A stretch of 59,734 nt of DNA from a virus. Its lineage: Duplodnaviria; Caudoviricetes. Position 1 is the first letter of the stretch. Each line of letters opens with the position of its first letter. A program made the translations under genes and the position numbers. This document shows, one piece after another, positions 1-45,740 of this stretch. The stretch lies in IMG/VR virus record IMGVR_UViG_3300032676_000325, positions 1 through 59,734 of that record; one strand, written 5' to 3'. The notes beneath the pieces are model-generated. The model was not told where the DNA came from, did no database searches, and saw nothing but the letters and a program-made list of their open reading frames with translations.

Positions 1-280
1 CGGAACCCTGACCCACATACAGGCTTTCAAGCCATCGTTTGAATTGGATGAACTCGATGTCCCTGTCATTGTGCCACACATCAATTGACACCCTGAAATG
101 GAAAATATGACGATGAGGATTAGCAAGGAACGATACATCATATTCATCTCCAGTTTTAAGTAATGGGTCAGTGGCGGCCGCTGGATAACAGTGAATTCCT
201 TCTTTGGTAAAGCTAACCCAGATCTTTCTCTTAGCTGCAATTATAATTCTATCTACTAGATCACGTTCTGCTTGTATCAT
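1..280 (-). CDS. QueD-like T-fold protein (DpdL-like), partial, runs off the left edge
   Basis: Not in the ORF track. Manual translation from ATG 280 gives MIQAERDLV...KEGIHCYPAA...SFLANPHRHIFHFRV...DRDIEFIQFKRWL. It has LxxxHRHxF instead of the QueD CxxxHGH motif, an ATGA overlap with the upstream gene, and lies near a TGT-like gene. Confidence 0.75.
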   Translation of the reverse strand, partial: MIQAERDLVDRIIIAAKRKIWVSFTKEGIHCYPAAATDPLLKTGDEYDVSFLANPHRHIFHFRVSIDVWHNDRDIEFIQFKRWLESLYVGQGS

Positions 281-9946: not shown

Positions 9947-9951
9947 TTTTT

Positions 9952-10732: not shown

Positions 10733-11407
10733 TTAATTTAACCATAATGCTCGTGCTACATCTAACATTGAAGTATTAGTCCACCTAAACTGAATAGTTA
10801 CTCTATAATCATCTCTACGTCCGGCTGGGCGTTCAACGCTGTGTATTTCATTGATATTGTAAAGCCAAGTTTCACCTTTAGCTGGGCGTGCTATGGCTAC
10901 ACACTCGACTTTGTCTATGTCTGGAATAGACTTAGCAGGTAATTTGTGTGGTTCTCTTACAGCCCACCAACAGGTAGATTCATCAGCTGTGGTTACTGGA
11001 CAAATAAGTGTAACATCACGGTTGACATCGGAATGTGGTGCAAGATAATCGCCATTGGTCATGACCTGCATTCTAACATAAGGTGGTTTAGGCATGTTAC
11101 GAATTGATTCCGGTAACCGATTAAATATTTCTCTATCTAGATCGTCGGGCAATTGATATACACGTAATTCAATTGGCTTTTGGCCTGCATAATAGTCTAA
11201 TATTTTTTGTCTGTATTGATCAAATATTACTTGTTCTTCGGAACTTTCGATACTTTCTAAATAACGATTGTTTATCTTAGAATCACTTTTTTCGAGATAT
11301 TCACCGTTTAATATAAGTTTATCGTGATCAATTGTTAGCAGTTGATTAATTTGTTGTTCGATACTAGGTGTTAATAGGTCTATATCGGTTTGTAGAAAAT
11401 ATTTCAT
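10733..11407 (-). CDS. 2OG-Fe(II) oxygenase-like protein
   Basis: HxD (PHSD), distal H (IHSV) and R (YRVTIQ). Confidence 0.7.
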   Translation of the reverse strand: MKYFLQTDIDLLTPSIEQQINQLLTIDHDKLILNGEYLEKSDSKINNRYLESIESSEEQVIFDQYRQKILDYYAGQKPIELRVYQLPDDLDREIFNRLPESIRNMPKPPYVRMQVMTNGDYLAPHSDVNRDVTLICPVTTADESTCWWAVREPHKLPAKSIPDIDKVECVAIARPAKGETWLYNINEIHSVERPAGRRDDYRVTIQFRWTNTSMLDVARALWLN

Positions 11408-11482
11408 TGAAATTCTCGTATATAAAAATATTTAGTATGGATACCCTAAGCTCATAAATATTCAAAACAGGGGCATTGCATA

Positions 11483-12172
11483 TTGATTATTGGCTACAAC
11501 TATTCATTAATCGAAACTGATATTAAACTTATTGGTTATAAAGATTCCACTTATGTAGCCGATACTAAGTATCAGATACTATCTGACTCGCAAATTCGTT
11601 CAGTTAAAAGTTTTGATATAATTGAACCTGCTGAATTCTACAAAACTGATCTAAGTAATTTTAAAAATACAGCATTTATTGTTTGTGTATTTAAGGACTT
11701 AACTGAAAGAAAACAAATAGTTGAGTATATAAAAACACACAATCTAAAGAAATTTAGTTTTATTCATGATTCATCTAGTTTAAATATCAAAGAAATTACA
11801 ATTAGACCGGGTTCAATTGTTATGCAGTATTGCATCCTGGCACACCGAGCAGAAATAGGCGAAGATTGTTTAATTGCACCATATAGTTTGATCAGTCACA
11901 ATGTAAAATTAGGCAACAATGTAAACATCTGTCCTGCTACTGTAATCAATGGCAGTACTATTATAGGTGATTGGTGTTATGTAGGATCGAGAAGTACATT
12001 CAAAGATGGAGTATCTGTGACAGCTAATACATATTTGGGTATGGTATCTACAGTTAATAAAACCCTAGAAGAACCTGGTACATATATGGGTAATCCTGTT
12101 AGACGATTAAACGATCAAACAGTGTTTGAACATTTTAATTTTAATTCTGCAGCACCTTCTGCCCAGGCTTGA
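11483..12172 (+). CDS. hexapeptide-repeat O-acyltransferase (NeuD/PglD-like)
   Basis: Left-handed beta-helix repeats (IGEDCLI, SHNVKLG, IGDWCYVG) and YMGNPVR; TAAATA at 11455-11460; TTG start uncertain. Confidence 0.85.
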   Translation: MIIGYNYSLIETDIKLIGYKDSTYVADTKYQILSDSQIRSVKSFDIIEPAEFYKTDLSNFKNTAFIVCVFKDLTERKQIVEYIKTHNLKKFSFIHDSSSLNIKEITIRPGSIVMQYCILAHRAEIGEDCLIAPYSLISHNVKLGNNVNICPATVINGSTIIGDWCYVGSRSTFKDGVSVTANTYLGMVSTVNKTLEEPGTYMGNPVRRLNDQTVFEHFNFNSAAPSAQA

Positions 12173-13332
12173 TTTATTATGTCTGTGACCAATGTTTTAA
12201 AATCATTTTTAAAAAAATTGTAATTATTTATAAACCTACTTTTATTTTCCTTCCATAATTTCTTAACTACCTCCGTGTCTTTTAGTAGCGATAGATTTAA
12301 TTCTATTGCCTGAGACAATCGAAGTGCTGGATCAACGATATTATCGTAACTGTGATCAACAATATCATCAAACATGTCAAATCCCTGTTGGCGTAAATGA
12401 TTAACCGTGCCTAGTGTAGAAATAAAAATAGGAAAATTGGCACCTAGTATATTATTAACATATTTGTCATTGGTAAAGGCACTTGGTTCAAAATAGGTAG
12501 TATCAGTAATAATCTCTATAAATGTTTTCTGATATGTCTTAGAGAGTGCATTGTAATTTTTATTTAATGTAGGATTAAACGCTATCTCAGTTAATGTATC
12601 TTTAGAGATTTTTGAAAATCCTGAGAGTAATATGTTTTTAATAGGATCATGCACGGTATCGAAACACCAATCTAAAAAACAATCAATTGAGGTATTCTCA
12701 TAAGATCTTAATGTAATATAACCGTACGGGTCTAGTCCTTTGCCTAATAGGTAGCTGACTACAGCAGGTCGATGCGGCCTATTAACATTGTTTAGGCAGA
12801 TAAAAGTTTTATCTGAATTAAAATCTTTATTAGGTTCAATTATACAATCTTTAAAATGTATACTTGATCGTAATAAATTTCCAGATTTAGTACACTTGAT
12901 AATTAGATTGCTGGGTATATTGCACTGTGTAGTTTCTCTGTCAAGATAATCCACAACACTATAAAACAAGATATTTTTATTAGGATTGTTGTTAGCAGCA
13001 TTTATTAAATTTAATATGGTATCACTAATTAGAAACGGAAAAGAATAATTATTATTTTCATATTTTACATATCGGAGAAGATCAGAATGATGCAGATGAT
13101 CTGAATGATAAATTACAATATTCTTTTCGGAAAATTTATGTATATTTTCTGCTATAGTATGATCAGATAATTCTGTGAATACAAGTCGATAATCTGTAAT
13201 TCCATTTACATCTAGTTGATCAGTGATACCATTGCATAAATTGTCAAATAACTCTCGAATTCCAGATTCCCACTGTGGGAGATAGTTAATAGACAATGGA
13301 CCAGTACGGCCCCATATTAAAGCATTATTCAT
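12115..13332 (-). CDS. putative glycosyltransferase-like protein
   Basis: FICLNNVNRPHR...FIEIITDT...GFDMFDDIVDHSYD, resembling GT-B-like phage proteins; very AT-rich. Confidence 0.5.
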   Translation of the reverse strand: MNNALIWGRTGPLSINYLPQWESGIRELFDNLCNGITDQLDVNGITDYRLVFTELSDHTIAENIHKFSEKNIVIYHSDHLHHSDLLRYVKYENNNYSFPFLISDTILNLINAANNNPNKNILFYSVVDYLDRETTQCNIPSNLIIKCTKSGNLLRSSIHFKDCIIEPNKDFNSDKTFICLNNVNRPHRPAVVSYLLGKGLDPYGYITLRSYENTSIDCFLDWCFDTVHDPIKNILLSGFSKISKDTLTEIAFNPTLNKNYNALSKTYQKTFIEIITDTTYFEPSAFTNDKYVNNILGANFPIFISTLGTVNHLRQQGFDMFDDIVDHSYDNIVDPALRLSQAIELNLSLLKDTEVVKKLWKENKSRFINNYNFFKNDFKTLVTDIINQAWAEGAAELKLKCSNTV

Positions 13333-13343
13333 GCAATTACTTA

Positions 13344-13763
13344 TTAGGTAATTCTACACTTACGTAGTATTTTGGTAGCTGTTTCAAATTGTATTGCTAG
13401 ATTGTCAAATAAGTCTTCTGACGGACGAGCCATAAATGCACGAGTTAGATAAGCATTTTGACCTAGATCACTATAGTAATTACAACTAGGCCAACGGCGT
13501 TTACCCCATTCCATACTATTAATTAATAAACACTCGTCACCTACTGCTTTTAACACTTCTTTACGTTGGAGTGCAGGTAAGGTAACACTGGCTAATAGTT
13601 TGATACCTAAGGGTTCTGTATTGATCGTTGGTTTGTCTAGATAGTGTGCAAAAAGATGTACTAGATATGCTTCTACGGTATGTTCTAATTCAATAGTTAA
13701 TGCTTGCTCTGCTTCTTTAATAAGCTCGTAAGATTCTTTAACGTAGACTTCCCAATTGGTCAT
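13344..13763 (-). CDS. hypothetical protein
   Basis: 139 aa helical ORF abutting the upstream gene. Confidence 0.75.
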   Translation of the reverse strand: MTNWEVYVKESYELIKEAEQALTIELEHTVEAYLVHLFAHYLDKPTINTEPLGIKLLASVTLPALQRKEVLKAVGDECLLINSMEWGKRRWPSCNYYSDLGQNAYLTRAFMARPSEDLFDNLAIQFETATKILRKCRIT

Positions 13764-14177
13764 TTATGGTAGTACCACCGGAGGTGCTTTAAGGTATTCA
13801 GGATAGGCCTTGTCAAAATCACGCATGATGATACCAGCTACTTCATGTGCTTCATTTTCGATTGGGCTACCTGTGTGCCAACTGGTTGAATCTAATCGAT
13901 GTTCTTCACCTTGTACATAGTGTGTCATTTCGTGCGCTAAGGTACGTAGAATATCCACCGGTTGGCGATTGGCTACGACTACAGATATAGCTCTTTCTTC
14001 GTTGACAAAACGACCAAATGTTGGAATATTTGCATCTGGTATTGATTTAACTAATTTAATTTTTGGAATGTGATCTAAACCCAAATGCTTAACAGCAATA
14101 GGCAAGAAGTCACGTAGTGCATCAATTAAAGTTAATTGTTTAGATTCTTCCTGTTCAAACATTTCGAATAGGTTCAT
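13764..14177 (-). CDS. zincin-type metallopeptidase, candidate internal virion protein
   Basis: HEXXH (LAHEMTH) plus downstream ENEA; N-terminus MNLFEMFEQEE. Confidence 0.75.
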   Translation of the reverse strand: MNLFEMFEQEESKQLTLIDALRDFLPIAVKHLGLDHIPKIKLVKSIPDANIPTFGRFVNEERAISVVVANRQPVDILRTLAHEMTHYVQGEEHRLDSTSWHTGSPIENEAHEVAGIIMRDFDKAYPEYLKAPPVVLP

Positions 14178-17100
14178 TATAGTAATCCTGCCAATTTACG
14201 TAAAAGGTTAATGCTTTCGTTTGTTTGATTTATAGCACGAATATCCAACGCACCAGTAGCTAATCCTAGATCTTGTTCATGTTCACGTGCTTTTCTTACA
14301 GCATAAACAACATCGCCTTGTCTTACGCGACTAACCACTTGACCAGTTGCGGGATTATAAATTTCCCATTCGCTGTGCTCTGGATCAACACCTTGCGGAG
14401 CCTCTTCATCACTCTCACTGCCCATAAGGTCATTGATATCCTCGTCATCATGCGATCGCATATCCTGTGAAATCTGCTCACGCTCGCGACGCATACGTTC
14501 ACGCTCATCAGCATCATCTGCAAAAGTATTAGTTGGTGCGTCATCGTCTGGGTTAATACCGTTAGCACGCAATTGACGTTTAAGTAAAATTCTAATATAA
14601 GCTAATTGTTGATCAGTTAGAGTAAGGTTACGGCCAGCATCTTCACGCGATAGATTTCTTAGCATATTGATAAGATGCATATCTGCGCTATAACTTAGAT
14701 CATTAGCAATGTAATCTTTCCAATGCTGTGGCAATGTGTCAAACACTGGATTTCTAGTAGTATCATCGTTATCTACAGCATCATTATTGCTACGACGGCG
14801 TAGTTCAGTCTCAATAGCTGTCTTGACAAATGCTACTTGATTACTATATAAGCCACTACCGATGCCTCTACCTGCTTCAATATGATCAAGAGCCTGGCGT
14901 AATTCTAAATCATGATGTTCACCTACACGCTCTAGCCATGATCTAGTACCTTCTGGTAAACTGTCAAATAGTTCTCTAGGACCAGTTTCACCAGCATCCT
15001 GTCTGCGACGCAGTTCATCATCAATGGCTCTAATCACAGCATCGCGTTGTTGTTGTGATTCTAAACTGGGATTGTGTTCACCTTGTTCAATTTGACGTCT
15101 AAAGTCAGCAATAACTTCTGTGCGTCTATTAGGTAATGTGTCAACCCAATTACGCCATTGTTGTGGAATAGCATGTACCGCACCACTACCCTGTGTAGCA
15201 GCAATGGCTACTAAGTCATTGGCATCAACATTCAATCCGTGTTCTCTTGCGAACAAGTCCACTGCTGCAAGTTTAGCCTGACGTGGAGTAACAGCATCAA
15301 CATATACAGAACTGCCACTTGCGGAACTAACTCTCCAACGTGTCATTTCATCAGCACTGTCACTACCATCATTGTTTGTTGCCTGTCTATTAGCAATAAT
15401 ATCATCAATTAGGTTAAGCAGATAATTGGTATCGTCGTCAGTTAGGCCAGCACCAGCATACGAACCTGATTGTAGTCTACGCTTAGTTTCACGTAGGTCA
15501 CTATCTAATGCTCGCGGAGCAATATCTCTTGCCCATCGTTGCCATGGAGTTGGCAATGTGTCTGGCATAGGACCCGCTGTGTTACGGGCATTCTGTCGGC
15601 GGCGTAGTTCGTTATCAATTTGTTGGATAATCCAAACATTAGCCGCTTGATCTAAACCATCCCTGCCGTCTTTAATTCGTTGTCTAACTTCGTTTGCTAT
15701 TGCTAAGGTAACATTAGGTAATGTATCTTCAACCCAACTCTTCCATCCTTCAGGTACTGAGTCTGGTATTTGTGTACTGGATTCTTTACGGAACTCAATT
15801 AGTTCATTAATGTAGTCTAATAGATACTGTGTACTCTCATCGTCTAGATAACTAAAATTCCCAGCTTTAAGTTCTTGTTCAATTCTGAACAGTTCATTTG
15901 CGTCTGCTGTTGGTGCTTTATCTTTGATCCAATTTATCCAACCACCAGTCAATGATTCTGGTGCTGGTTTAGTTGGTGATGGACCCGGAGGAGTACGTTC
16001 AAACGGCTCAGCCTTAAGTTTGCTGATACTGTCCTCACGCTTCATGCCTAACTGCTTACCACCTTTGATAATAGCATCTGTAACACTTTGCGCAAAGACC
16101 ATTTGCTTGCCGCCAGTACCGTCTTTGTTCATAACCCAGTACTGTTGTTCTTCACCTTTCTTCTCTTTACGAGCTGTCTGTGCCTGACGCACATTGCTGA
16201 CTAATTCGTCTTTGTTGATCTGCCCCATAGCATAGCGACTGAATAGGGATACTGAATTGTTAGGATCAGTCCAATCACCTTCATTTGGGCTTACTAATTT
16301 ATATAACTTCTTAGCGTATTCTTGTTTGTAAGCATTATCATCTGTGGCAATGCGTAAGGCCTGTGCTAGACGTAGAGCAGTACCAGTTAGTTTAGTTAAG
16401 TCTTGATCTAAATAGTCGCCACCTGGGCCACGGAACTCCACATACTTGTCTTTGGTATTGATACTTGTATACTTTTGTGTAACACCACTGTGTACTAATT
16501 TACTTGCAGCTGCACCAAGATGTTCTTTCATCTTGTTTAATAAGGCTGTGGCATTCTCTGGATTCTGTTGAATCTTTTCTTTAACAATCTTCATAGCACT
16601 CTTACAGTAGCTATTGTAAGTACGACCAAATTCTGATAGTACATGCTCGTCACCGAGGAACAGTGCTAATTTAACATAATCCAATGACTCAATAGTCATG
16701 TTAGGTACACTGATATTCATGTGTAGGCCAGTTGACTTATTAGTATAACAACCTTCTGACTTAGCCCATGCTTGAACTTTTTTCAGCATTTCAATACCAT
16801 CTTTAAGTGGCATTGCTGGACTGATAAACTCTAAACCCGCGTCATCGCTATCAGCATCAATACTACCATCTGGTTCAATAATGAAGTAACCTTGTTCTTG
16901 TTGTTGACTACGACTACCACTGTGGTAGTTGCTATAACCTCGTGCTGGGAATCCTGTGCCGTCTGTGAATGCTTCTGCTACTTGATCTACGTCAGCACTA
17001 CCTTCATCACGGTAGTTAGCATCATACATGTGTGGCCAATCTAAGTCCCAATAGCGATGTGCGTCCTGCATGTCATCAACACCAATTGACTCTAACCAAT

Positions 17101-17749
17101 CTGTTTGGCTGGCATAGCTGTCACGCCACTCATCTTGCAGTTCTTCTTCGGCAGCTTCGCGGGCACGTTCGTATTCGCGACTGTCTGCTTCTTCTATCTG
17201 TTCATCAATCCAGCGATCCATCCATAGTAATGTTAATTCACGTACACGTTCTTCTATAGCGGCATCATCGTCGGGTAATAACTCACCTAATTCTTTCTTA
17301 GCATCTGCGACAAAATCATCGTATTGATTGTTGCTGGCATCGCGAGCATCATCCTGTAGATTCTCGCGAGTTTTCTTAATTACTTCGTCGTAGTTTTCGT
17401 CTACGTAGTTCTGTGAGCCTTCATATTGCCATTCTAAATATTCGTTATATAATTGGCTACGGGCACGTTCGGCATCACTACGACCCATACTGCTGAATTC
17501 ACCATTACGGAAGAAGTTAATAATTTCGTCAATGTCGTAGGCGCTTTCGTTGGCGTCCCAGTCGTATTCCCATTCAGGCTCATCATCACCTGATGATGCA
17601 TTTGGCACGCACATTTCAAACTCAATACCCATTAGCATGCCTTCTGCTTCTGGACTATTGGCGAATTTTTCAAGGCTACTAGGACTCATTGATACTTCAT
17701 CAATGATCTCTGCTTCTCTTAAGGCTTGTTTAATTTGACTATAACGCAT
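14177..17749 (-). CDS. putative amidoligase (COOH-NH2 ligase) with C-terminal tandem helical repeats
   Basis: GIEFE, DGSI, GLEFISP, STGLHMN, KY and VEFR motifs; acidic insertion; six W-x-x-W...ELRRR-type repeats; ends LRKLAGLL. Confidence 0.8.
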   Translation of the reverse strand: MRYSQIKQALREAEIIDEVSMSPSSLEKFANSPEAEGMLMGIEFEMCVPNASSGDDEPEWEYDWDANESAYDIDEIINFFRNGEFSSMGRSDAERARSQLYNEYLEWQYEGSQNYVDENYDEVIKKTRENLQDDARDASNNQYDDFVADAKKELGELLPDDDAAIEERVRELTLLWMDRWIDEQIEEADSREYERAREAAEEELQDEWRDSYASQTDWLESIGVDDMQDAHRYWDLDWPHMYDANYRDEGSADVDQVAEAFTDGTGFPARGYSNYHSGSRSQQQEQGYFIIEPDGSIDADSDDAGLEFISPAMPLKDGIEMLKKVQAWAKSEGCYTNKSTGLHMNISVPNMTIESLDYVKLALFLGDEHVLSEFGRTYNSYCKSAMKIVKEKIQQNPENATALLNKMKEHLGAAASKLVHSGVTQKYTSINTKDKYVEFRGPGGDYLDQDLTKLTGTALRLAQALRIATDDNAYKQEYAKKLYKLVSPNEGDWTDPNNSVSLFSRYAMGQINKDELVSNVRQAQTARKEKKGEEQQYWVMNKDGTGGKQMVFAQSVTDAIIKGGKQLGMKREDSISKLKAEPFERTPPGPSPTKPAPESLTGGWINWIKDKAPTADANELFRIEQELKAGNFSYLDDESTQYLLDYINELIEFRKESSTQIPDSVPEGWKSWVEDTLPNVTLAIANEVRQRIKDGRDGLDQAANVWIIQQIDNELRRRQNARNTAGPMPDTLPTPWQRWARDIAPRALDSDLRETKRRLQSGSYAGAGLTDDDTNYLLNLIDDIIANRQATNNDGSDSADEMTRWRVSSASGSSVYVDAVTPRQAKLAAVDLFAREHGLNVDANDLVAIAATQGSGAVHAIPQQWRNWVDTLPNRRTEVIADFRRQIEQGEHNPSLESQQQRDAVIRAIDDELRRRQDAGETGPRELFDSLPEGTRSWLERVGEHHDLELRQALDHIEAGRGIGSGLYSNQVAFVKTAIETELRRRSNNDAVDNDDTTRNPVFDTLPQHWKDYIANDLSYSADMHLINMLRNLSREDAGRNLTLTDQQLAYIRILLKRQLRANGINPDDDAPTNTFADDADERERMRREREQISQDMRSHDDEDINDLMGSESDEEAPQGVDPEHSEWEIYNPATGQVVSRVRQGDVVYAVRKAREHEQDLGLATGALDIRAINQTNESINLLRKLAGLL
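14560..15960 (-). repeat. six degenerate ~60-70 aa protein repeats
   Basis: SLTGGWINW, SVPEGWKSW, TLPTPWQRW, AIPQQWRNW, SLPEGTRSW and TLPQHWKDY, most ending in an I-x-x-E-L-R-R-R-like helix. Confidence 0.75.
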
Positions 17750-17755
17750 ATTAAG

Positions 17756-17761
17756 TATTTA
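17756..17761 (-). promoter_or_regulatory. late promoter TAAATA
   Basis: TAAATA 6 nt before the ATG at 17749; no SD. Confidence 0.6.
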
Positions 17762-17776
17762 TCGCTTGTTTTATCT

Positions 17777-17856
17777 TGCTCACTTTTGGCATCCCTCCAG
17801 GCCAGCAGCCGGCCACACCGTACCGTTACGAATAACGGGTCCTAAGGTGGTGTTCT
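17777..17856 (-). ncRNA. candidate structured RNA
   Basis: GC-rich intergenic patch with a CCGUUA-UUCG-UAACGG hairpin enclosed by CACC/GGUG, followed by a GGCCG/UGGCC hairpin. Confidence 0.5.
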
Positions 17857-17955
17857 TTACGACAGTATTACAGTAAAAACAACGGCCCATGACCAAGCAA
17901 CAAGTCCAACTACTATGGTTAGGGGTAAGTTTTCAAATGTAAAATATTCTTTCAT
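17857..17955 (-). CDS. 32 aa single-pass membrane peptide
   Basis: Manual translation MKEYFTFENLPLTIVVGLVAWSWAVVFTVILS; ATGA overlap with the upstream gene. Confidence 0.55.
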   Translation of the reverse strand: MKEYFTFENLPLTIVVGLVAWSWAVVFTVILS

Positions 17956-18428
17956 AGATATCCTACCCAAGCAGGACCTTTATATCCTTGTGGGTACGCT
18001 TGTAAGTGTTGTATAGTTCTATGCCAGCCTTCTGCTAAATCGTATCCCTGTGCTGTTTTGAATACAATAATAGGTTCTTTGCTTACACCCTGTGTTTGTA
18101 TCATTGCCTGTTGTGTAGCGTGACGTTCAGCATCTTTAGGAACACCGTAAGGGTTAGCACTTCCGCCTGCACGAAGTTTAATACGTTGTTGTGTTTCTGG
18201 TGTAAAAATGTCTAAGGTAATTGATAATGTTTCTAAACGCCATTGACGAACTGGATAATCTTTTTTAATACCCTGCATCCAATCTGCCAACTCTGCTGAA
18301 TCAGTGATGCCTTTGGCATTTTTATATAACCAATCATTTACTACATACGGTGGCCATGTAGGAAATTGTTGCTGTAGATAATCTTGCAGCCTGTTTCTTA
18401 ACTCAGTTATGAATTCTTTTGATCTCAT
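17952..18428 (-). CDS. ParB/Srx-like domain protein, candidate internal virion protein
   Basis: EPIIV...YDLAEGWHRT; N-terminus MRSKEFITE. Confidence 0.7.
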   Translation of the reverse strand: MRSKEFITELRNRLQDYLQQQFPTWPPYVVNDWLYKNAKGITDSAELADWMQGIKKDYPVRQWRLETLSITLDIFTPETQQRIKLRAGGSANPYGVPKDAERHATQQAMIQTQGVSKEPIIVFKTAQGYDLAEGWHRTIQHLQAYPQGYKGPAWVGYL

Positions 18429-21170: not shown

Positions 21171-22343
21171 ATGTTACACTCTTCTGAACTAAAAGTCAAT
21201 CTATCCGATTACGAGAATTTCTTAATATGGTTTAATCAATCTAACTACGTAACTGCTAAGTCATTAGATGAATGTACTCGATGGGAAATACGAGAAGCAT
21301 TATCTTATTATTTCTTTAATTTAAGTATTAGCAGTGAATTAATGTCAATAATAGATTCTATTAGATTTGATAATAGTTTAGGATGGGCTACATTGTCATT
21401 GGTTGACGAAGCAAAAATACAATATAAACTACGTCAGTTAGGGTATGAATTAACCTGTGTTGACCAATGGCCTACTACTGTAAATGAATTTAAACTTATA
21501 ATTGAAGATTACAGTCCCTCAAAACTTATAAAAAATAAAATACAAATAGTTCCTATAGTTGCACAAAAGATTGTAAGTAAACTGTCACAGACATTTGTGG
21601 TTAAATTTGGTTATTTAATCTTTTGTCTAGTAATGTTAGGATATTATCATGATTGGATAATGTTAGCACAAGGAGCACTGTTTGGATATCTGATGTGGGC
21701 TTGGGTTGAATTTGCTGATCATGATTATATGGAACATAGATATGTAGTACCAAAAAACAAAGTAATAAAACATTTTGTTGAGTATCTTTGTTATATTTTT
21801 ATGCCAGCGACCTATGCTAATAAAATAGAATCTATTAGATTACACACATATCATCACATCTATTGGAAGGGTGAAAAAGACAAATATACGCAAAGTATTA
21901 ATGATATTCCTGTGCCGGGGTTTTTTAATCCCCCATTGTTTACTAAACCAAATGCAAAAAATATGCAACGATTACTTAATGAATATCCCGAGTTTCCATA
22001 TATTGTTAAATATTTTAGAGAAATTGAAATATTAATATCGTTAATTGTTATAGCAACCTTGGGATTTAAATTTTATTTCTTTTTCTTTTTAATACCTATA
22101 TTAATTCGGCCACCTCTGCAAGCACAACATGATTTTTGGCTTACTAATCTAGGTGAACGTGATCATTATCTATTATTTCCGCTGGCATTAAATCAAGCAT
22201 GGCATGTTACGCATCACAATAATTTTAGAATAGTACCTAAAACTTGGAGCGAAGTGTTTAACGGACCATGGTGGGTTAAGTATGTTAATCCTCAATACTA
22301 CTTTGGTCGCCTTTTCTTCAAACTCAGATACAGAGACAAATAA
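21171..22343 (+). CDS. desaturase/hydroxylase-family membrane protein with an extra N-terminal domain
   Basis: His boxes HDYMEH, HTYHH and HVTHH; TM segments; N-terminal WEIRE...DEAKIQ...WPT domain. Confidence 0.75.
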   Translation: MLHSSELKVNLSDYENFLIWFNQSNYVTAKSLDECTRWEIREALSYYFFNLSISSELMSIIDSIRFDNSLGWATLSLVDEAKIQYKLRQLGYELTCVDQWPTTVNEFKLIIEDYSPSKLIKNKIQIVPIVAQKIVSKLSQTFVVKFGYLIFCLVMLGYYHDWIMLAQGALFGYLMWAWVEFADHDYMEHRYVVPKNKVIKHFVEYLCYIFMPATYANKIESIRLHTYHHIYWKGEKDKYTQSINDIPVPGFFNPPLFTKPNAKNMQRLLNEYPEFPYIVKYFREIEILISLIVIATLGFKFYFFFFLIPILIRPPLQAQHDFWLTNLGERDHYLLFPLALNQAWHVTHHNNFRIVPKTWSEVFNGPWWVKYVNPQYYFGRLFFKLRYRDK

Positions 22344-22365
22344 AAACCGCCCTTTCGAGCGGTTT
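22344..22365. terminator. terminator between convergent genes
   Basis: AAACCGC-N8-GCGGTTT hairpin. Confidence 0.7.
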
Positions 22366-22371: not shown

Positions 22372-25359
22372 CTAATAAAAACCTGGACCCCAATTTATGA
22401 CTATTGGAACAATCTGTTGCAGATGTACAGTGTAGTCATAATATCCTTCACTATTACCTGGATCATATGGTGACCAAATACCAATGTATCCATTTTCTTG
22501 TGTTGGACGTTGTGCTCCACCTGCTGAAAAAATATCATATTGATATCGACCTTGATTATAAACTCCATACGCTGTTGTTTCTGTAACCAACGCTGCTGAC
22601 GGTATAGCTGTAGCAGTAACAGTTGATGTCAGATCACCATGGTAATATTCTGGACCTTCTACTAATTCAATACCAACAGCCGCCGCACCATTTTGATGTG
22701 TGCTTTCACCGCCAGTACCAGTGTATGATAGTACTGTTTCGCTTGCAATTGAATTGCCCATCTTCATAGTAAAATAATCGTGGTCATCTATGTTACCTTG
22801 GAAGTGGAACACAACTGCGTCAAATACAGGAGCAATAAATGTTCCAAATGATGATGCATTACCAAAAGTAGAAATAGTTACAGCAACATTAGCACCAGGA
22901 GTCGTTGCATAAAGTGCTGTTTGTATTCCGGTAGCCGTTATATATTCTATAGTTAATCCATATACGCCACCGGGCACAGTCCAATAGTAAGTGCCTGGTA
23001 AATTCCAAGTCATTGTTCCGGATGGAGTTAATGAAGTATCATTTACTATAACTCCCGCTGAACTGCCTTGACCTTCTAAAGTTAACACCATATTAGTGTA
23101 GCCATCAGTGTGATAATTGTTAACAATAGCAACGTCAACATACTCTGAACTACCTATAACAAAATTGCCACTTGTTTGACCGCCGACTATTCGATTTGAC
23201 GCAATACCAGAAATATCATAAGTTATAGTTGTTCCAGGAACACCCTGTATATTTGCTACGGTAAATCTAACTGCATTACCTTCATTAACTGATGAAACGT
23301 TGGCTGATACGCTATATGATGTGCTCAATGATGTATTGTTAATAATAACTGATGTATTAGCTGTAGTATTGTCAATTATCATACCTAATGTTTTTGGGCC
23401 AGTAGTAGTATGTGCAGGAATAGTACTTATTACCGCGGTATTGCCGGTACCAACAGTAAAATGTCCACTTAATGATCCAGTACTTAAGAATGTAGGATTA
23501 TAACCTGTAAGTGTGTAATTAACATTGGTGCCTGTAGATAGTCCAGTGGTTGTTAGGGTAAATGCAATAGCATTTCCTTCGTTGGCAGATGCTACATTGG
23601 CTGATATTGAATATGTAATTGCAGGTGATATTAAATTCTCTGCGCCGGTAATTGTACTGCTGGCAATCAATGGTTGCCAAGATCCATTGACTTTAACCCA
23701 AGCATTTAATAATGCTTTCCATGAATTACTTACTTTAACCCAAGCATTATCGACAGGTAACCATGATCCTGATTCTTTGATGCTGATGTTAAATGTTCTA
23801 GTAAACACAAGTACGGCAGCGCCATCTTGTCCTGCATAACCAGCATTATTTCCTGGATAGATTGGATTTAGTGCTCCACCCGGTGCTGTTCCGCTACCAG
23901 ACTGGATAATAGTACCAAAATTAACTCCACCAAGTCCGCCTCCACCAGCACCTGATCCACTGCTACCGGCTGAACCGCCATACCAACCCCCGCCTCCACC
24001 TCCACCTGTAACAGGTCCAGATGATGAATTTTGTCCAATTCCGTATACTCCTGAAGCAACACCAGAAACACTTGTCGGTCCTGCACTGCCCCCAATAGCT
24101 CCACTTGGTCCGCCTCCGCCACCACCGCCACCTCCGGCAGCAACACCAACTACATTGCCGTTGATTAGAATAACAGATGCACCACCACCACCGCCACCTT
24201 GTCCGCTACTAGAATTTGCGATGGCCGCAGTGCCTCCTGAATAATTAGTAGGTGTAAGTAAACTTGCACCACCTAAATAACTTTGTGCTGCTTCGCCGAC
24301 AACAACTTTAATAATATCTCCTGCATGCACTTGAACAATTCTTGATGAAAATCCACCGCCAGAACCAAGACCGCCAGCACCACCACTAACAGTTGAATAT
24401 TCTGGAATATCAGTGTATAACGGTTCAACAACTGCGGCTGCACCTGGAGTTCCAGCAATATTCACTGATGAATAGCTAATTAATACATATCCACTTTGAC
24501 CAGCATTTGATGCCGTGGCTGTTGTACTTCCACTTGGAATAACCCCAGTACCTGTAGCACCCGATGTTGCAGCAAATGATTTGTCTGATCCCATTGATCC
24601 GTCGGCGCCGGTAACAACTCCGCCTCCGCCACCGCCGCCACCGCCGCCATCTCCGGAATTATTTTTTGGATAGCCATTTGATCCAGTTGCTGTTGAGCCT
24701 GGCACATAATCACTGCCACCACCACCGCCACCGCCGCCGGCAGCAACAACTACAATTGTACCATTAATAGCAACTGAAGAAGCTCCGCCGCCACCACCAC
24801 CAGCACCCGATGTTCCACTATATCCACTTGGGTAGCCGCCGCTGTCTCCTGGGTATGCACCAGTTCCGCCACTGCCACCACCACTACGGGCAGTTTGATT
24901 AGCACCAGCGCCACCGGCACTGCCGACATTAACTGAAATAGTTGATCCCGGAGTTACTGCTAAAGTAGTAGTAATCAATTGACCACCATATCCAGCAGCA
25001 CCTAGGCCTTGTGGTGCGCCACCATCATCAAATCCGCCCCGACCACCACCCCCGCCTACTGCGGTAATTGTTACATGTGTAACACCTTGCGGAACTGTTA
25101 TAGACTGTGTACTGGCTGATATAGTTATTGTTTGACTAGGAATATAAATACTTGGTGTTCCAGGAGTTGCAGCTGTAACCACTGTGCTTCCGGATAAAAC
25201 TTTTTCTGATCCACTTATAACTGCGGTTGCTGGACCAGCAGTACCTGCGGCACCACCTGCTCCCCATAGGTAAAATTGTAAAGCTGATATACCTAACGGC
25301 ACTGTATATGTATATGTGCCTGCTGAACTATATGTGGTGGTTTGTGTACTAAGACTCAT
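22372..25359 (-). CDS. glycine-rich tail-fibre/virion surface protein with Ig/Calx-beta-like repeats
   Basis: Poly-Gly loops, WVKVxxxW motifs and two SANVxSxNEGNAxxFT repeats. Confidence 0.75.
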   Translation of the reverse strand: MSLSTQTTTYSSAGTYTYTVPLGISALQFYLWGAGGAAGTAGPATAVISGSEKVLSGSTVVTAATPGTPSIYIPSQTITISASTQSITVPQGVTHVTITAVGGGGGRGGFDDGGAPQGLGAAGYGGQLITTTLAVTPGSTISVNVGSAGGAGANQTARSGGGSGGTGAYPGDSGGYPSGYSGTSGAGGGGGGASSVAINGTIVVVAAGGGGGGGGSDYVPGSTATGSNGYPKNNSGDGGGGGGGGGGVVTGADGSMGSDKSFAATSGATGTGVIPSGSTTATASNAGQSGYVLISYSSVNIAGTPGAAAVVEPLYTDIPEYSTVSGGAGGLGSGGGFSSRIVQVHAGDIIKVVVGEAAQSYLGGASLLTPTNYSGGTAAIANSSSGQGGGGGGASVILINGNVVGVAAGGGGGGGGGPSGAIGGSAGPTSVSGVASGVYGIGQNSSSGPVTGGGGGGGWYGGSAGSSGSGAGGGGLGGVNFGTIIQSGSGTAPGGALNPIYPGNNAGYAGQDGAAVLVFTRTFNISIKESGSWLPVDNAWVKVSNSWKALLNAWVKVNGSWQPLIASSTITGAENLISPAITYSISANVASANEGNAIAFTLTTTGLSTGTNVNYTLTGYNPTFLSTGSLSGHFTVGTGNTAVISTIPAHTTTGPKTLGMIIDNTTANTSVIINNTSLSTSYSVSANVSSVNEGNAVRFTVANIQGVPGTTITYDISGIASNRIVGGQTSGNFVIGSSEYVDVAIVNNYHTDGYTNMVLTLEGQGSSAGVIVNDTSLTPSGTMTWNLPGTYYWTVPGGVYGLTIEYITATGIQTALYATTPGANVAVTISTFGNASSFGTFIAPVFDAVVFHFQGNIDDHDYFTMKMGNSIASETVLSYTGTGGESTHQNGAAAVGIELVEGPEYYHGDLTSTVTATAIPSAALVTETTAYGVYNQGRYQYDIFSAGGAQRPTQENGYIGIWSPYDPGNSEGYYDYTVHLQQIVPIVINWGPGFY

Positions 25360-39392: not shown

Positions 39393-40046
39393 TTATTTAT
39401 CAATTCCACGAAGTTGCTTTGCTTGTACACCATGCCATACTTCTTGATCTAGCCAATACTCGTCTACGTGTTTAACGTACTTGGCATTAGGATCTTCTGA
39501 GATAAATTTAAAGATATCTGGATTGTTATAATCAACAGGAAAACTTAGGATTCTGCTGATATATTGTAGGTAGTGCTCACGATGTAAAAATAATGCCTCG
39601 TTTGATAAGAAATGTACAGGAAAAGTGCCAGTTAGTAGGTGATTATAGTAATAATCTTGCGCAATTGGCGTGGTAATTTCCTTGCGTACTCGTAACTGTT
39701 GTTCTGCATTGATATTCTTATCTCGAGTAATTATTGCAATTTTAACATCAATATCTAATGCCGATGCACGCTCTGCTACTTCTTTAATTTTAGGCACATA
39801 ACGTTGTCCGTCATAAAAGAACGGACAACTTACATTGGCTAACCAATGGTTATAACCGTCAAAATCTTTAGAAGTTAACTTATCTGGATTGACCCAAAAG
39901 TCTGCAAATGGTTCTTCATCGCTAGGTACCCAATACTTGTCTAGTAAACTTTTCCATCCACCTACATTTGGGTGCGTGCTTAATATGCGGCTGAATAAGT
40001 GATTGCCACTGCCTTGTGGACCTGTAATGATTAATAATTTTTTCAT
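39393..40046 (-). CDS. P-loop/sulfotransferase-like protein
   Basis: IITGPQGSGNHLFSRIL; paralog of 41038..41676. Confidence 0.6.
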   Translation of the reverse strand: MKKLLIITGPQGSGNHLFSRILSTHPNVGGWKSLLDKYWVPSDEEPFADFWVNPDKLTSKDFDGYNHWLANVSCPFFYDGQRYVPKIKEVAERASALDIDVKIAIITRDKNINAEQQLRVRKEITTPIAQDYYYNHLLTGTFPVHFLSNEALFLHREHYLQYISRILSFPVDYNNPDIFKFISEDPNAKYVKHVDEYWLDQEVWHGVQAKQLRGIDK

Positions 40047-41041
40047 AGTTTGTGTATATTTGGTTCTAATAGATCGTGTATTAATTTTGTGTTCTTTGGT
40101 AATGCTTCGATGCCATATCCTTTAATATTTAAATTGTAGTTGTATAAAAGAATATGTTGTATAAAAACATCTTTGGAAAAATCCATTCGATAATCAGATA
40201 AATCAATATCGTCACCTTCTACTATATTGTTTATTATTTCTGGCCAATTACGATAAAATCTAACATCGTGTAGTTGTTGCCATTTAATGTATATAGATTT
40301 CCAATAATCGAAATCATTGGCAGGAGTAATATTAAAAAAATCTAATATATTGTATATTTCTTTATCTAGATTATCTAGCATGTCCTTGGTTGTGATTTCG
40401 TAATGATTAGTTTTACTTATAGTAATATCAAAGTGCTCGTAGTCAAATGGTCTAATAGATAGTGCTAATTTTTCTCTATAATCCCATATCTTAAGATTAT
40501 CACCCCATTCTGCAGATTCTTCACCGAAAAATTTAGTATACAATTTCATTAACTCGTCATCAGATGTAGAATCAAATGCTCTTCCTCGATTAAACATATT
40601 ATATAGGATATCTTCTTTATTATTTCTAAGTATCAGCAACTTATAATTTTGCTCTATTAGAAAATTATTCATGTTGGTAATTATTTCATTAGGTAACCGA
40701 CGAATCTCATCATTCCACTTATTATTATTGTCATATACGTCATCACTGAGAAATTTTAAAATATCAACACCATTATCAGATATTTTCGGGGATACATATA
40801 TACTATGAAAACTTGTAGTAGTATTATTAATATCATCAATACAGTGTTTTAATAAATCAAGAGATGGTGGGTGTATTTTATTATGTTTATGAGCATTAAC
40901 TATACTAACGGGGTCTTTGGTTAGGGATTCCCAAGATTTAGATAACGGATTATAAAAATGCTGTACGCCTGAAAAATAGTACAAACTCCAATCTAAGAAC
41001 GTTAGTCCACATGATAATTCACCTGCCAAATAAGCTATCAT
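40043..41041 (-). CDS. hypothetical protein, WxxRE family (sulfotransferase-like)
   Basis: CGLTFLDWSL, WDYRE, W..IY..WQQ and DVFIQH motifs shared with the 42429 and 44832 ORFs. Confidence 0.6.
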   Translation of the reverse strand: MIAYLAGELSCGLTFLDWSLYYFSGVQHFYNPLSKSWESLTKDPVSIVNAHKHNKIHPPSLDLLKHCIDDINNTTTSFHSIYVSPKISDNGVDILKFLSDDVYDNNNKWNDEIRRLPNEIITNMNNFLIEQNYKLLILRNNKEDILYNMFNRGRAFDSTSDDELMKLYTKFFGEESAEWGDNLKIWDYREKLALSIRPFDYEHFDITISKTNHYEITTKDMLDNLDKEIYNILDFFNITPANDFDYWKSIYIKWQQLHDVRFYRNWPEIINNIVEGDDIDLSDYRMDFSKDVFIQHILLYNYNLNIKGYGIEALPKNTKLIHDLLEPNIHKL

Positions 41042-42205: not shown

Positions 42206-42432
42206 TTGAAGTATGCGAAGTAGATTAATCCAGCAATAATCATAAAGATCTGCGGAAGGAAATTAGTAATTAAACTCTTCTCGTTCCATTTAAATCCTAC
42301 ATAGACCCAGCCACAAGCACCTATAATTTGAAGTATACTATTCCAAGGAGTGATACCTAGAATGTGTAAAGGCATAGCACATAGAATCATTGTTGCTGAA
42401 AACCACTTAACTACTATTGTATAATCTTTCAT
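42202..42432 (-). CDS. small three-TM membrane protein
   Basis: 76 aa, three hydrophobic segments, coupled to neighbours. Confidence 0.7.
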   Translation of the reverse strand: MKDYTIVVKWFSATMILCAMPLHILGITPWNSILQIIGACGWVYVGFKWNEKSLITNFLPQIFMIIAGLIYFAYFK

Positions 42433-43457
42433 GTTCTCTCCAATAGAGGAATAAAATCAGTTGTATTAGTTGGAAATATATTTAAATTGTGACATTTAAT
42501 TTCTATATTATTATCGAATAATTTACGTTGTATAAAGATTTCGTCAAAGAACGAAATGTTATAAGAAGTCCAATCTAATTCAAGATTGTTGATCAATGCA
42601 GTTACGATAGTATTAATCTGTTGGTCCTTATATAAATGTATTTGTGTAGGAAGCCATTGCTGATATATTTTAGATACATCATTATAATTAATATCTTTAA
42701 TCTCAAATGTATCTAAAATACTTAGTAAGGTTTTTTCAAAATTATCACGTAATTGATCTAATTCAATAAATTTAACTTTGGGATATTTAGATTTAAGTTC
42801 TATAATTTCATCGTCGGTAATAATATTTGACATAGTTCGATCATAAAAATATTTTGATGATAGTTCTCGTAATTCCCAAAGTTCAAATTCATCAATTGAA
42901 GTATGATCCCATTTTAATAAATTTTGATTATCTATTTCGTATGATAGTTCGAGTCTGAGTTTATCGATTCCGTAGACTTTTCTTAGAGAAATCATACGAT
43001 CTGATTTCATGTTGTCTCTTAACCAAACATCTGCAGCAATACCTTCCCTTGATAGGTCATCATAGGTTCGAATTTTAAAGTAACTATTGTTAATTAAACA
43101 ATTGATTGAATTAATCGTGGGGTATATAAAAATAATATTTTTAAAATTGTCAACTAATTTTTTTAAATTATCGTTTAATATGCTAAATGTTCTTTTAGAT
43201 TCAATTGGAATATCATCTTTTAATAATACATGTTCATGCATTTGTGCAATAGGAAAATTATTTTCAGATTTTAAATACTGATCAAGATGTGATGGAAACA
43301 ATATACAAAATCTTCCTGGAAAAGAATTATGCACACTACCGGTAGGGGCAAACGGGATTTCTGAATTAGGTATTATACCACTAAAATAACTACAACACCA
43401 ATTGATTAGATTACCATATGCTCCGGCAGTATATAAAATTGCATTTGTATTTTTCAC
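42429..43457 (-). CDS. hypothetical protein, WxxRE family (sulfotransferase-like)
   Basis: Start reset to GTG 43457, below the terminator; YTAGAYGN, WELRE and DEIFIQ...FPTNT. Confidence 0.6.
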   Translation of the reverse strand: MKNTNAILYTAGAYGNLINWCCSYFSGIIPNSEIPFAPTGSVHNSFPGRFCILFPSHLDQYLKSENNFPIAQMHEHVLLKDDIPIESKRTFSILNDNLKKLVDNFKNIIFIYPTINSINCLINNSYFKIRTYDDLSREGIAADVWLRDNMKSDRMISLRKVYGIDKLRLELSYEIDNQNLLKWDHTSIDEFELWELRELSSKYFYDRTMSNIITDDEIIELKSKYPKVKFIELDQLRDNFEKTLLSILDTFEIKDINYNDVSKIYQQWLPTQIHLYKDQQINTIVTALINNLELDWTSYNISFFDEIFIQRKLFDNNIEIKCHNLNIFPTNTTDFIPLLERT

Positions 43458-43472
43458 TAAGTCCTCGTCAAT

Positions 43473-43497
43473 AAAAAAGGAGCCTAAGCTCCTTTTT
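43473..43497 (-). terminator. intrinsic terminator after the ferritin-like gene
   Basis: AAAAAAGGAGC-CTAA-GCTCCTTTTT. Confidence 0.8.
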
Positions 43498-43519
43498 CTG
43501 CTTATAAAATTAATTATGC

Positions 43520-44209
43520 TTAGTAAGCACTGTCCATTAATTTTACAGCTTCTGGTGTTGCAGTTGTGTTCATACATGACACTGCAAATAAATCCATACG
43601 CATTGTACGAGCAATTTGTTCAATACGAGCTTGAGTAGCTTCATCGGTTGCTAACAATTCTAAAGCACGACGACCAATGTTGCTGTGGAATCCTTCGTCG
43701 CGAGCAATTTTAGCGTATGTTGTGCTAATGAATTCGTCTTGAATACATTCAGCCATTTTGTCCCATACACGTTCTGCACGACCTTCAGCAATAAATTGAT
43801 AAGCCGCAAGTGCCAATGGATCGTTTTGTGCTTCATACTTAGCTAATAGAGCAGCACCTTTAGCTGTTGGTTTAGCAGCTTCGGCAGCAATAGCCGCTTC
43901 GACATCAACTTTTTCGCCTGTGATGTGTTCGATAACTTCTTTAACCATACGGAAGTGATTAGCTTCGTCAAGTGCTTGTTTGCTTAGTAATGCTAGGTCT
44001 TCGACTGAAGTATCAGCAGGGGCAGTAGCTACTTTACCAGCTATTTCAACCATGTTCATACGCTCGTTAACCATACGACCAGTAAAGTGTTCTACTAATT
44101 GTTCTTGGCTTGGGTTAGATGCAAAGTATGCTTCAACATTCAATTCACTTGCTTTGAATAGTGCTTCATTATCTTGTGCTAATTTAGCAACAAATTGTTT
44201 TGAGTTCAT
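43520..44209 (-). CDS. ferritin-like di-iron protein
   Basis: E...DEANH...E...DEGFH, i.e. a paired ExxH pattern. Confidence 0.8.
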   Translation of the reverse strand: MNSKQFVAKLAQDNEALFKASELNVEAYFASNPSQEQLVEHFTGRMVNERMNMVEIAGKVATAPADTSVEDLALLSKQALDEANHFRMVKEVIEHITGEKVDVEAAIAAEAAKPTAKGAALLAKYEAQNDPLALAAYQFIAEGRAERVWDKMAECIQDEFISTTYAKIARDEGFHSNIGRRALELLATDEATQARIEQIARTMRMDLFAVSCMNTTATPEAVKLMDSAY

Positions 44210-44831: not shown

Positions 44832-45740
44832 ATGTTGCATATTTTATTTGTCCCTGGTACATTTGGTAGTACTATTCAGTATATCTTACGTGCATTTAGT
44901 ACTACGTATAGTGCTGATAGATTGCCAAATATAACATACGCAGATATGATAACTCCTGATGGGTCGATGCATTCATATTATAAAACTGGACACTATGTGT
45001 GGAAATACGAACTCGATGATTTGGTTGGCGGGTTAATAGATAAACCATTGATAACATCACCTATATACCCGATGCCTGACTTTCATGCAGATGAATTGAT
45101 AAATTTCTTTAAGATCAATTTTCCCGACGACAAATATGTTTTTGTTTATGTAGATAGTTTAGAATATGCAGAAATTAATATGTTAGCACAATATTATAAA
45201 ATAGCTAAAGGTGTTTCTAATAAAACGTTAGAAATTTTCTGTGGGAAAAATGAGCACAATATTATCAATTGGAATATTAATTATAAGCATTGGAGTGAAA
45301 TGCAACTATGGGAACTTAGGGAATGGTTGAGCACATTCTATCCAACATGGGTTCAAGGATGGATTGATTCTTACAACTATGCTGACCAAAATTGGTTAAG
45401 TGTTAGTTCTAAAGAAATTTTAGATAATCCACATGACACATTTTTAAAGGTTTTAAACTATTCAGGTGAGATTGACTCTAATTTGATTTCAACATTTTCT
45501 GATTTTACTACGCACTGGCGTAGTCAACAACAATATCTATTAGACGAATATAATCTAATAAAGAAAATAGTTCAAACGTCGATAGCAAATGAACCATATG
45601 AGTGGTCCGAGTTAAATATTATCTCAGAGGCAATTATACAACAACATCTAAGATCAAACGGCTACGAGATTGCATGTTACGAATTAAATAAATTTCCAAC
45701 ATCTTCGACTGTATTACATTCTCTATTAGAAAAATCATGA
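44832..45740 (+). CDS. hypothetical protein, WxxRE family (sulfotransferase-like)
   Basis: FVPGTFGSTI, GSMH, WELRE and SEAIIQ...FPTSS. Confidence 0.6.
   Translation: MLHILFVPGTFGSTIQYILRAFSTTYSADRLPNITYADMITPDGSMHSYYKTGHYVWKYELDDLVGGLIDKPLITSPIYPMPDFHADELINFFKINFPDDKYVFVYVDSLEYAEINMLAQYYKIAKGVSNKTLEIFCGKNEHNIINWNINYKHWSEMQLWELREWLSTFYPTWVQGWIDSYNYADQNWLSVSSKEILDNPHDTFLKVLNYSGEIDSNLISTFSDFTTHWRSQQQYLLDEYNLIKKIVQTSIANEPYEWSELNIISEAIIQQHLRSNGYEIACYELNKFPTSSTVLHSLLEKS

Follow-up and report, generated by a model that had tools for sequence, protein, structure and literature searches.

The question raised by this locus is why a putative membrane di-iron enzyme encoded by a virus should carry, ahead of its catalytic domain, a domain that recurs in a quite different class of proteins encoded by the same virus. 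The stretch of DNA in question, hereafter the window, is the complete IMG/VR virus record IMGVR_UViG_3300032676_000325, which has a length of 59,734 bases and an estimated completeness of 17%, and whose DNA polymerase is nearest to those of jumbo myoviruses (Sinorhizobium phage Phosso at 51.5%, Agrobacterium phage Atu_ph07 at 46.7% and PBECO4-like phages at ~42.5%). The gene under study (21171..22343, + strand) encodes a fusion protein of 390 residues, which consists of an N-terminal module (residues 1-116; 21171..21518), a linker with transmembrane (TM) helices and a di-iron domain with three His boxes. The start at 21171 fits the N-termini of its homologues, and the 12 near-full-length homologues that were collected all have the identical architecture, including the N-terminal region.

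An earlier, sequence-only reading of the window had held that the N-terminal region is a compact domain shared with three sulfotransferase-like proteins of 302, 382 and 332 residues, that it perhaps docks on a common carrier or substrate, and that it would thereby tie the scattered modification genes into one pathway. The four open reading frames (ORFs) exist as described and the shared module and its compactness are borne out, but the single pathway is not. The reading favoured here, at a probability of roughly one half, is that the module is the substrate-side lid of the sulfotransferase-like enzyme, captured once by a desaturase and serving there in ligand recognition.

Evidence for a module shared by two protein families

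When residues 1-130 of the 390-residue protein are compared with the partner proteins by BLASTP, the 302-residue protein (44832..45740, +) is matched with an expectation value (E) of 9e-7 (residues 72-112 against 258-300) and, where the WEIRE helix meets the WELRE helix, of 0.026, and the 382-residue protein (42429..43577, -) is matched across its WELRE segment with E 1e-4. No convincing match to the 332-residue protein (40043..41041, -) is found. Of the alignments originally made by eye, therefore, those to the first two proteins stand, and that to the third has no direct counterpart and holds only transitively. The three partners are diverged paralogues, with BLASTP E values among them of 6e-13 (the 382- and 302-residue pair), 6e-4 and 8e-8. 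The 332-residue protein is the distant member: the desaturase N-domain profile reaches it at E 0.12, which is not significant, and it is matched by the profile of the 302-residue family alone (residues 177-326, E 1.2e-9).

The sequence-only reading had proposed a profile-profile comparison and a listing of domain architectures as its checks, and the former returns significant similarity. Aligned by hhalign, 13 desaturase-type N-domains and 33 aligned members out of 191 homologues of the 302-residue protein match with a probability of 98.7 and E 1.6e-16 over 63 columns (54-116 against 240-302), with a second match on the WxxRE helix (probability 51, E 1.5e-4), whereas the His-box part of the same alignment, as a control, gives a probability of 0.1 and E 0.48. 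Across the window and 47 related viral loci, counted without dereplication and with duplicates included, a hidden Markov model (HMM) of the desaturase N-domain matches 50 of 51 sulfotransferase-like ORFs, the sole miss being the 332-residue protein, and an HMM of the C-module of the sulfotransferase-like family matches 10 of 10 desaturase-type ORFs. Further afield, a profile built from 7 diverse desaturase N-domains and searched against 1.84 billion proteins gives 568 matches at E ≤ 1e-3, of which 212 have E ≤ 1e-10, and this desaturase-only profile reaches sulfotransferase-like proteins at E values down to 1.2e-21. The two halves of the module, described at the outset as nearly contiguous in the desaturase and separated in its partners, are so in the two families at large: counted from the RE motif, the DEA helix lies a median of 40.5 residues away in 26 desaturase-type proteins and of 105 residues in 60 sulfotransferase-like ones.

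Both the homology and the contrast in spacing are far beyond chance. The possibility that the resemblance arose by chance or from base composition, the phage genome being A+T-rich, might draw on the lack of a significant direct match to the 332-residue protein, but it is refuted by the difference between E 1.6e-16 and the control value of 0.48, and by cross-family matches at E 1e-21 in 1.84e9 proteins.

As read from these alignments, residues 1-116 of the 390-residue protein are homologous to two pieces of the 302-residue protein, namely its WELREWLS helix (45309-45332, +) and its last ~65 residues (45543-45737, +, as placed by hhalign). The counterparts in the desaturase are the WEIREALSY helix motif (W38-Y46; 21282..21308, +), recognised by conservation and alignment, and a C-part at residues 54-113 (21330..21509, +) which contains ...W..LSLVDEAKIQYKLRQLGYELTC..WPTT... 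and aligns to residues 240-302 of the 302-residue protein. The same two elements, a WxxRExxS helix and a C-part of ~65 residues, are found in the 382-residue protein as WELRELSS (42855-42878, -) and as a segment at 42432-42629 (-), where the desaturase N-domain profile matches residues 317-380. In the 332-residue protein the motif reads WDYREKLA (40463-40486, -), with A in place of the S of WxxRExxS, and a C-part is placed by profile at about 40064-40249 (-).

The predicted structures agree with this division. Residues 1-113 of the 390-residue model have predicted local distance difference test (pLDDT) values of 74-92 and are followed by a linker (115-127) with pLDDT below 50, such that the module in the desaturase is predicted to be a compact separate domain, as first proposed. 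Its helices (H) and strands (E) are H3-10, H14-23, H37-47, H55-65, H77-89, E92-94, H104-107 and E111-113. By hhalign the first 36 residues, which form two helices, have no counterpart in the 302-residue family; thereafter the elements correspond one for one, and in order, to H159-183, H234-251, H263-275, E278-280, H292-297 and E299-301 of the 302-residue model. In other words, the desaturase keeps the WxxRExxS helix, a second helix, the helix with DEAxIQxxLR, the strand with GYE, the FPT turn, a short helix and a final strand. Missing from it are ~65 residues (about 171 to 237 of the 302-residue protein), comprising the rest of the long helix, the β-strand at 189-192 and three helices, a stretch which, judged by alignment with SULT2A1, would be core sulfotransferase structure.

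Conservation falls on the same elements. The residues R41, E42, A43, L44, S45 and Y46 (REALSY) are invariant in 13 of 13 desaturase-type proteins, and W38, R41, E42 and S45 are invariant across the 7 diverse N-domains. At 14 positions of the C-module the same residue is present at a frequency of at least 70% in both families (37 desaturase-type and 89 sulfotransferase-like proteins). Among 90 sulfotransferase-like proteins, R163, Q270, C282 and P289 are conserved at 100%, W160 at 98%, E164 at 97% and E266 at 94%, with the Gly loop, at 95-97%, standing at or below the level of the module residues. No named counterpart of the last 65 residues of the 302-residue protein is present in any library searched, and the N-domain alone has no fold match in the PDB above Z 2.9; its weak matches, to a clamp-loader C-terminus and to peptidyl carrier proteins, concern small helical bundles and carry no weight. 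An Atlas search with residues 1-116 gave nothing usable beyond one all-viral cluster of 311 residues and 533 members, at a template-modelling score of 0.35.

The remainder of the 390-residue protein (residues ~137-390; 21579..22340, +) belongs to the membrane desaturases. His box 1 is HDYMEH (21720-21737, +), box 2 is HTYHH (21843-21857, +) and box 3 is HVTHH (22203-22217, +), and all eight box His residues (H184/H189, H225/H228/H229 and H345/H348/H349) are invariant in the 13 aligned desaturase-type proteins. The best fold match of model residues 137..388 is stearoyl-CoA desaturase 1 (SCD1, 4ymk_A; Z 9.9, root-mean-square deviation 4.3, 220 aligned), and only 2 of 48,161 chains reach Z of at least 5. 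The top three Foldseek matches are also SCD1, weak at E 0.6-1, and yeast Scs7p is among the weak fold matches (Z 4.5). All 30 named language-model neighbours in the Atlas are FA_desaturase (PF00487) clusters, with a score of 0.93, and none of 13 desaturase-type members matches PF00487 (or PF04116) in Pfam, even at E ≤ 1. Within the superfamily of membrane desaturases the His-box part forms a remote branch restricted to viruses. It shares with SCD1 and the PF00487 superfamily the three His boxes (HX4H, HX2HH, HX2HH), the TM helices before box 1 and the fold; it differs in having no Pfam match and in carrying the N-terminal domain of ~115 residues. The name desaturase is used here for a putative enzyme, which may act by desaturation, by hydroxylation or by some other oxidation.

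Origin of the module

The 302-residue protein, modelled with pLDDT 93.4, begins with a strand, a Gly-rich loop (VPGTFGST) and a helix, as in sulfotransferases. Its model matches at least 12 sulfotransferases with Z 9.6-8 across residues 1..274-277, and P-loop kinases with Z 8.6-7 over 1..213, such that the margin of the sulfotransferases is small; the top Foldseek matches in the PDB are all sulfotransferases. Searched against a viral structure library, the model comes closest to uncharacterised proteins from uncultured phages (E 1.5e-14, template-modelling scores 0.65-0.73). A sequence profile search of the PDB gives seven matches, all of them weak (E ~0.1) and all SULT2A1 entries, in which residues 149-238 align with 141-243 of SULT2A1 and WELREW is paired with the native helix SWEEYFEWF.

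Sulfotransferases that use 3'-phosphoadenosine 5'-phosphosulfate (PAPS) carry a PKxGTT loop for the 5'-phosphosulfate, with a catalytic Lys, a C-terminal GxxGxxK motif for the 3'-phosphate and a catalytic His after strand 4. In the phage family GxxGxxK is found in 0 of 90 sequences, the shared module occupying that region of the chain, and the Gly loop, (P/G)GxYGTF with G9 at 95% and G12 at 97%, has a Lys or Arg nearby in no more than 4 of 90. At position 79 a His is present in 68 of 90 sequences, with Pro next to it in 73 of 90, and the 302-residue protein of the window has Tyr there; judged from the alignment, this is a candidate position for the catalytic His. When 33 members were searched against Pfam, matches were sub-threshold only, three of the members giving one to Sulfotransfer_3 (best E 0.0067) and a single member one to Sulfotransfer_1 (E 0.041). 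In short, the family resembles PAPS sulfotransferases (SULT2A1, SULT1B1, the NDST1 domain and bacterial Sulfotransfer_3) in the fold and in the N-terminal Gly-loop arrangement, and differs from them in the Gly-loop Lys or Arg, in GxxGxxK, and in that P-loop kinases score nearly equally. Since the canonical PAPS motifs are missing, the family is called sulfotransferase-fold here, and not sulfotransferase.

Transfer is inferred to have run from the sulfotransferase-like gene to the desaturase because the WxxRE helix aligns with a native sulfotransferase helix, because all sulfotransferase-like proteins examined carry the module, and because a single origin is consistent with the data. It is very probable that the module is both homologous to, and derived from, the sulfotransferase-like family. 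The module would have been carved from a sulfotransferase-like gene in such a way that two pieces adjacent in the parent fold were kept and the core strand between them was lost.

The converse, that a mobile domain of independent origin joined a P-loop core and a desaturase in two separate events, or that the module came from some third source, appears highly improbable. It would accord with the independent folding predicted for the module in the desaturase model, and the module tree, being unrooted, gives no direction of its own. The listing of architectures, however, speaks against it: among the best 150 of the 568 profile matches there are 36 proteins with the module and a His-box domain and 114 with the sulfotransferase-like C-half (short fragments included), and no stand-alone form or third architecture, the short matches being fragments or one nonsense-interrupted gene. 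Moreover, in the alignment with SULT2A1 both the WxxRE helix and the insert fall on native elements, and the structural alignments with sulfotransferases extend to residue ~275 of the 302-residue model. Of 92 full-length sulfotransferase-like proteins, 90 have N-terminal cores that group in a single cluster, matched to the core of the 302-residue protein with hhalign probability 99.5; across many diverged subfamilies, then, the module accompanies one kind of core.

As regards the number of events, the best tree found groups all 36 desaturase modules together (probability 0.87 in the approximately unbiased test, p-AU), which, for a tree built on module sequences, is consistent with a single capture by the desaturase. 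Unfused forms occur in two of the related viral and metagenome loci used for comparison, which are designated here by L numbers. L060 (193-996) and L062 (104-907) encode a His-box protein of 267 residues which starts ~20 residues before the first TM helix, has stops upstream in all frames and is 49% identical to the fused forms. It is nested in a well-supported clade of 31, all other members of which are fused. Two further variants were observed. L003 (5937-8148) and L004 (3141-5352) hold two tandem desaturase paralogues, with a module in each, beside a radical SAM protein of 501 residues, and in L006 (2295-3452) His box 1 of a desaturase homologue is interrupted by one in-frame stop codon (HEY*EH), which marks a pseudogene or else reflects a sequencing error.

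The desaturase-type family was found only in viral or metagenomic contigs. Pfam, PHROGs and NCBIfam hold no family for the 390-, 302-, 382- or 332-residue protein, tblastn of the 390- and 302-residue proteins against 50,697 GenBank phage records gave no match, and pattern scans of one genome from each of 185,579 prokaryote species, which detect close relatives only, gave no relative of either family.

Possible roles of the module on the desaturase

Two TM helices separate the module from His box 1, for which reason the module would sit on the cytoplasmic face of the membrane. The His boxes of SCD1 are cytoplasmic, and it is on that side that stearoyl-CoA desaturase (CoA, coenzyme A) binds the polar end of its substrate. 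In canonical sulfotransferases the C-terminal region covers the donor nucleotide and the acceptor. That the module may be a ligand-recognition lid follows from its holding the best-conserved polar residues of the parent family and from its replacing the region which covers nucleotide and acceptor. On the desaturase it would then act as a recognition domain for a head group or a nucleotide moiety, selecting or positioning the polar end of a lipid or acyl-thioester on its way into the di-iron site. A candidate ligand, suggested by analogy, is the 3'-phosphorylated nucleotide moiety which is common to PAPS-type donors and acyl-CoA. This role as a ligand lid is put forward tentatively, at somewhat less than an even chance, and is much less secure than the origin of the module.

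A soluble domain ahead of a His-box membrane enzyme has a familiar counterpart in the front-end desaturases and yeast Scs7p, in which an N-terminal cytochrome b5 domain, with the heme motif HPGG, is fused to the enzyme. The likeness does not go beyond that arrangement. Residues 1-116 hold one His (H3), no HPGG and no Cys cluster; with its homologues being parts of a transferase fold, an electron-donor role of the cytochrome b5 type was ruled out for the module.

Of a different kind is the proposal that the module is a neutral passenger, a sulfotransferase-like fragment fused by illegitimate recombination and acting as a cap which aids only folding, membrane insertion or stability. The lineage of L060 and L062 has lost the module and kept an intact His-box ORF, as such a passenger would allow, and Q and C of the module, although at 100% in the donor family, are relaxed in the subclade to which the desaturase of the window belongs. 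These observations must be set against the retention of the module in 36 of 36 His-box proteins among the best 150 of the 568 matches, and in 20 of 20 of another set, against the invariance of REALSY in 13 of 13 proteins, and against the mean pairwise identities within the desaturase family (N-domain 38%, TM segment 29%, His-box domain 47%), by which the N-domain is better conserved than the TM segment. On balance the passenger is improbable.

Several of the observations made so far weigh against the captured ligand-side lid as well. The placement of the module as a lid is made at the level of sequence, from the weak SULT2A1 alignment and from the general loop anatomy of sulfotransferases. The absence of the canonical PAPS motifs from these sequences leaves the chemistry and the ligand of the sulfotransferase-like family unassigned. 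The relaxation of Q and C in the window's own subclade sits awkwardly with a ligand site, and the unfused protein of L060 and L062, which as judged from its nested position is a secondary loss, makes the module dispensable in at least one lineage. As regards history, the unrooted module tree, built over 65 residues, has support for 4 of its 126 branches, an alignment of that length being too short to resolve the order of events; and the two architectures are those seen among the best 150 of 568 matches, such that rarer ones could exist.

Gene neighbourhood and wider meaning

The strongest of the competing explanations holds that the module is a docking or oligomerisation element, which pairs like with like, brings the soluble enzyme to the membrane desaturase, or joins both to a third protein of phage or host, with a modification complex assembled at the membrane as the outcome. 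The module is placed appropriately for such a function, since it ends the chain of the soluble enzymes and forms, on the cytoplasmic side, the free N-terminus of the membrane enzyme, and canonical cytosolic sulfotransferases do dimerise through a short C-terminal motif. The window, too, holds both classes of protein together with further Gly-loop proteins, an amidotransferase and a methyltransferase.

The comparison of genomes does not favour it, however. Of the five long records that carry a sulfotransferase-like gene, none has a His-box gene, although two are close to complete (95% and 98%), from which it follows that docking to the desaturase is not the primary role of the module. In five desaturase-bearing records, which are 1-26% complete, the module is present only inside the desaturase gene and there is no full sulfotransferase-like gene. 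L005 has the conserved slot described below without a sulfotransferase-like gene and a fused desaturase across the polymerase on the other side, and in L063, a contig of 254 kb, there is no sulfotransferase-like gene within ±10 kb of the desaturase. The two families are not obligate partners, because the sulfotransferase-like gene occurs without the desaturase, in two near-complete relatives among others, and L005 has a fused desaturase and a slot from which the sulfotransferase-like gene is missing. With one lineage, moreover, lacking the module altogether, the idea that the module ties the scattered genes into one pathway is not upheld. The invariant polar R, E, S, Q and C also resemble a ligand site more than an interface. 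Complex prediction with alignments of the 302-residue family and the N-domain gave scores of 0.00 and 0.00 against a mark of 0.32, with controls lacking, and says nothing either way. Docking on a common carrier or substrate may be a function of the module, yet docking or oligomerisation as a whole is unlikely, if less so than the passenger, and recognition of a ligand by a captured lid remains the preferred account.

In related phages the sulfotransferase-like gene has a fixed place. In ~39 related loci a single such gene occupies the same slot after a replication block (the DNA polymerase and four conserved genes), for example in L013 at 9908-18290, to which ~38 loci are similar. After the slot come an unknown gene of 400 residues, an NAD-dependent epimerase/dehydratase, a DegT-type aminotransferase, GTP cyclohydrolase I, a HIT protein, a PTPS/QueD-like protein, methyltransferases and radical SAM proteins, which from their predicted families looks like a block for sugar and 7-deazapurine-type modification. 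The window starts inside the gene preceding the slot, and its own slot is therefore off the left end.

The paralogues of the window lie instead in a modification island at 39393-46252, with genes on both strands, which contains the three module-bearing paralogues (332, 382 and 302 residues), two paralogous proteins of 212 and 217 residues with a GPQG(A/S)GNH loop (38% identical to each other), a protein of 187 residues with an N-terminus resembling that of the 302-residue protein (E 5e-4), a class I amidotransferase, a ferritin-like protein of 229 residues and a small methyltransferase-like protein of 171 residues. The close relative L008 is without the 332- and 382-residue genes and has another paralogue elsewhere, after a methyltransferase gene. 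The amidotransferase (178 residues; 41669-42205, -) had suggested an O-methyl phosphoramidate (MeOPN) type of pathway, for which PMC11800397 gives the background, its best match being to the NCBIfam model of gamma-glutamyl-CDP-amidate hydrolase (E 7e-21, 75 bits, cut-off 250). The match is unspecific, as this model gives sub-threshold matches in 14 of 14 control genomes too, and there is none in the two near-complete relatives; it was dropped as evidence. In record G009 a similar amidotransferase gene again adjoins a sulfotransferase-like gene.

The gene for the 390-residue protein is a single + strand gene flanked by - strand genes. Between it and the convergent gene for a glycine-rich protein of 995 residues (22372-25359, -; Pfam Gly_rich_2, E 8e-6; probably a virion or fibre protein) is a G+C-rich terminator-like hairpin (22344..22365), such sites in the region numbering 3 against 0.7 expected. 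A protein of 1190 residues (14177-17749, -), the gene of which is kept beside the desaturase neighbourhood in L002 and L063, has only a weak amidoligase-like match in PHROGs (E 1e-7, residues 257-477) and no family in Pfam or NCBIfam. At 32359-35583 (-) are an ATP-dependent protease-like AAA+ protein of 770 residues (phrog_4871, E 3e-245) and then a full DnaJ homologue (J domain and C-terminal domain), a phage-borne chaperone/protease pair.

We know of no N-terminal module of this kind in cellular desaturases. Among the papers listed in full-text searches on phage sulfotransferase and desaturase auxiliary genes and on jumbo-phage desaturases, none dealt with this fusion, and neither the fusion of a desaturase with a transferase-fold fragment nor the module itself is in any of the libraries searched. 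The nearest precedent is that of the cyanophage viral fatty acid desaturases (vFADs), which are presented by Roitman et al. (2017; PMC5776448) as delta-9 lipid desaturases acting on C16 chains at carbon 9. These, too, are phage-borne membrane desaturases carried as auxiliary genes, and offer a precedent for the remodelling of host membrane lipids by phages; as they are described there, the present family differs from them in having no Pfam signature, in belonging to relatives of jumbo myoviruses and in bearing the extra module.

What the module means for these families is, in the first instance, a matter of recognition. Both are missed by Pfam, PHROGs and NCBIfam and yet are common in aquatic viral metagenomes, the 568 module-bearing matches being clusters at 50% identity, and the definition of the module provides a handle for annotating the two together. 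It is also an example of a fragment of a fold, a lid minus its core strand, surviving as an autonomous domain. A more far-reaching version, in which the module serves as a recognition lid that can be moved between enzymes and is specific for one polar group, be it a 3'-phosphorylated nucleotide moiety or the head group of an envelope lipid targeted by the phage, is a long shot. Were it true, jumbo phages would be reusing the lid to direct two enzymes of unrelated chemistry, the group transferase and the di-iron desaturase, towards a single host molecule, and the module would be a domain-level 'address label' of a phage-directed pathway for remodelling the membrane or envelope.

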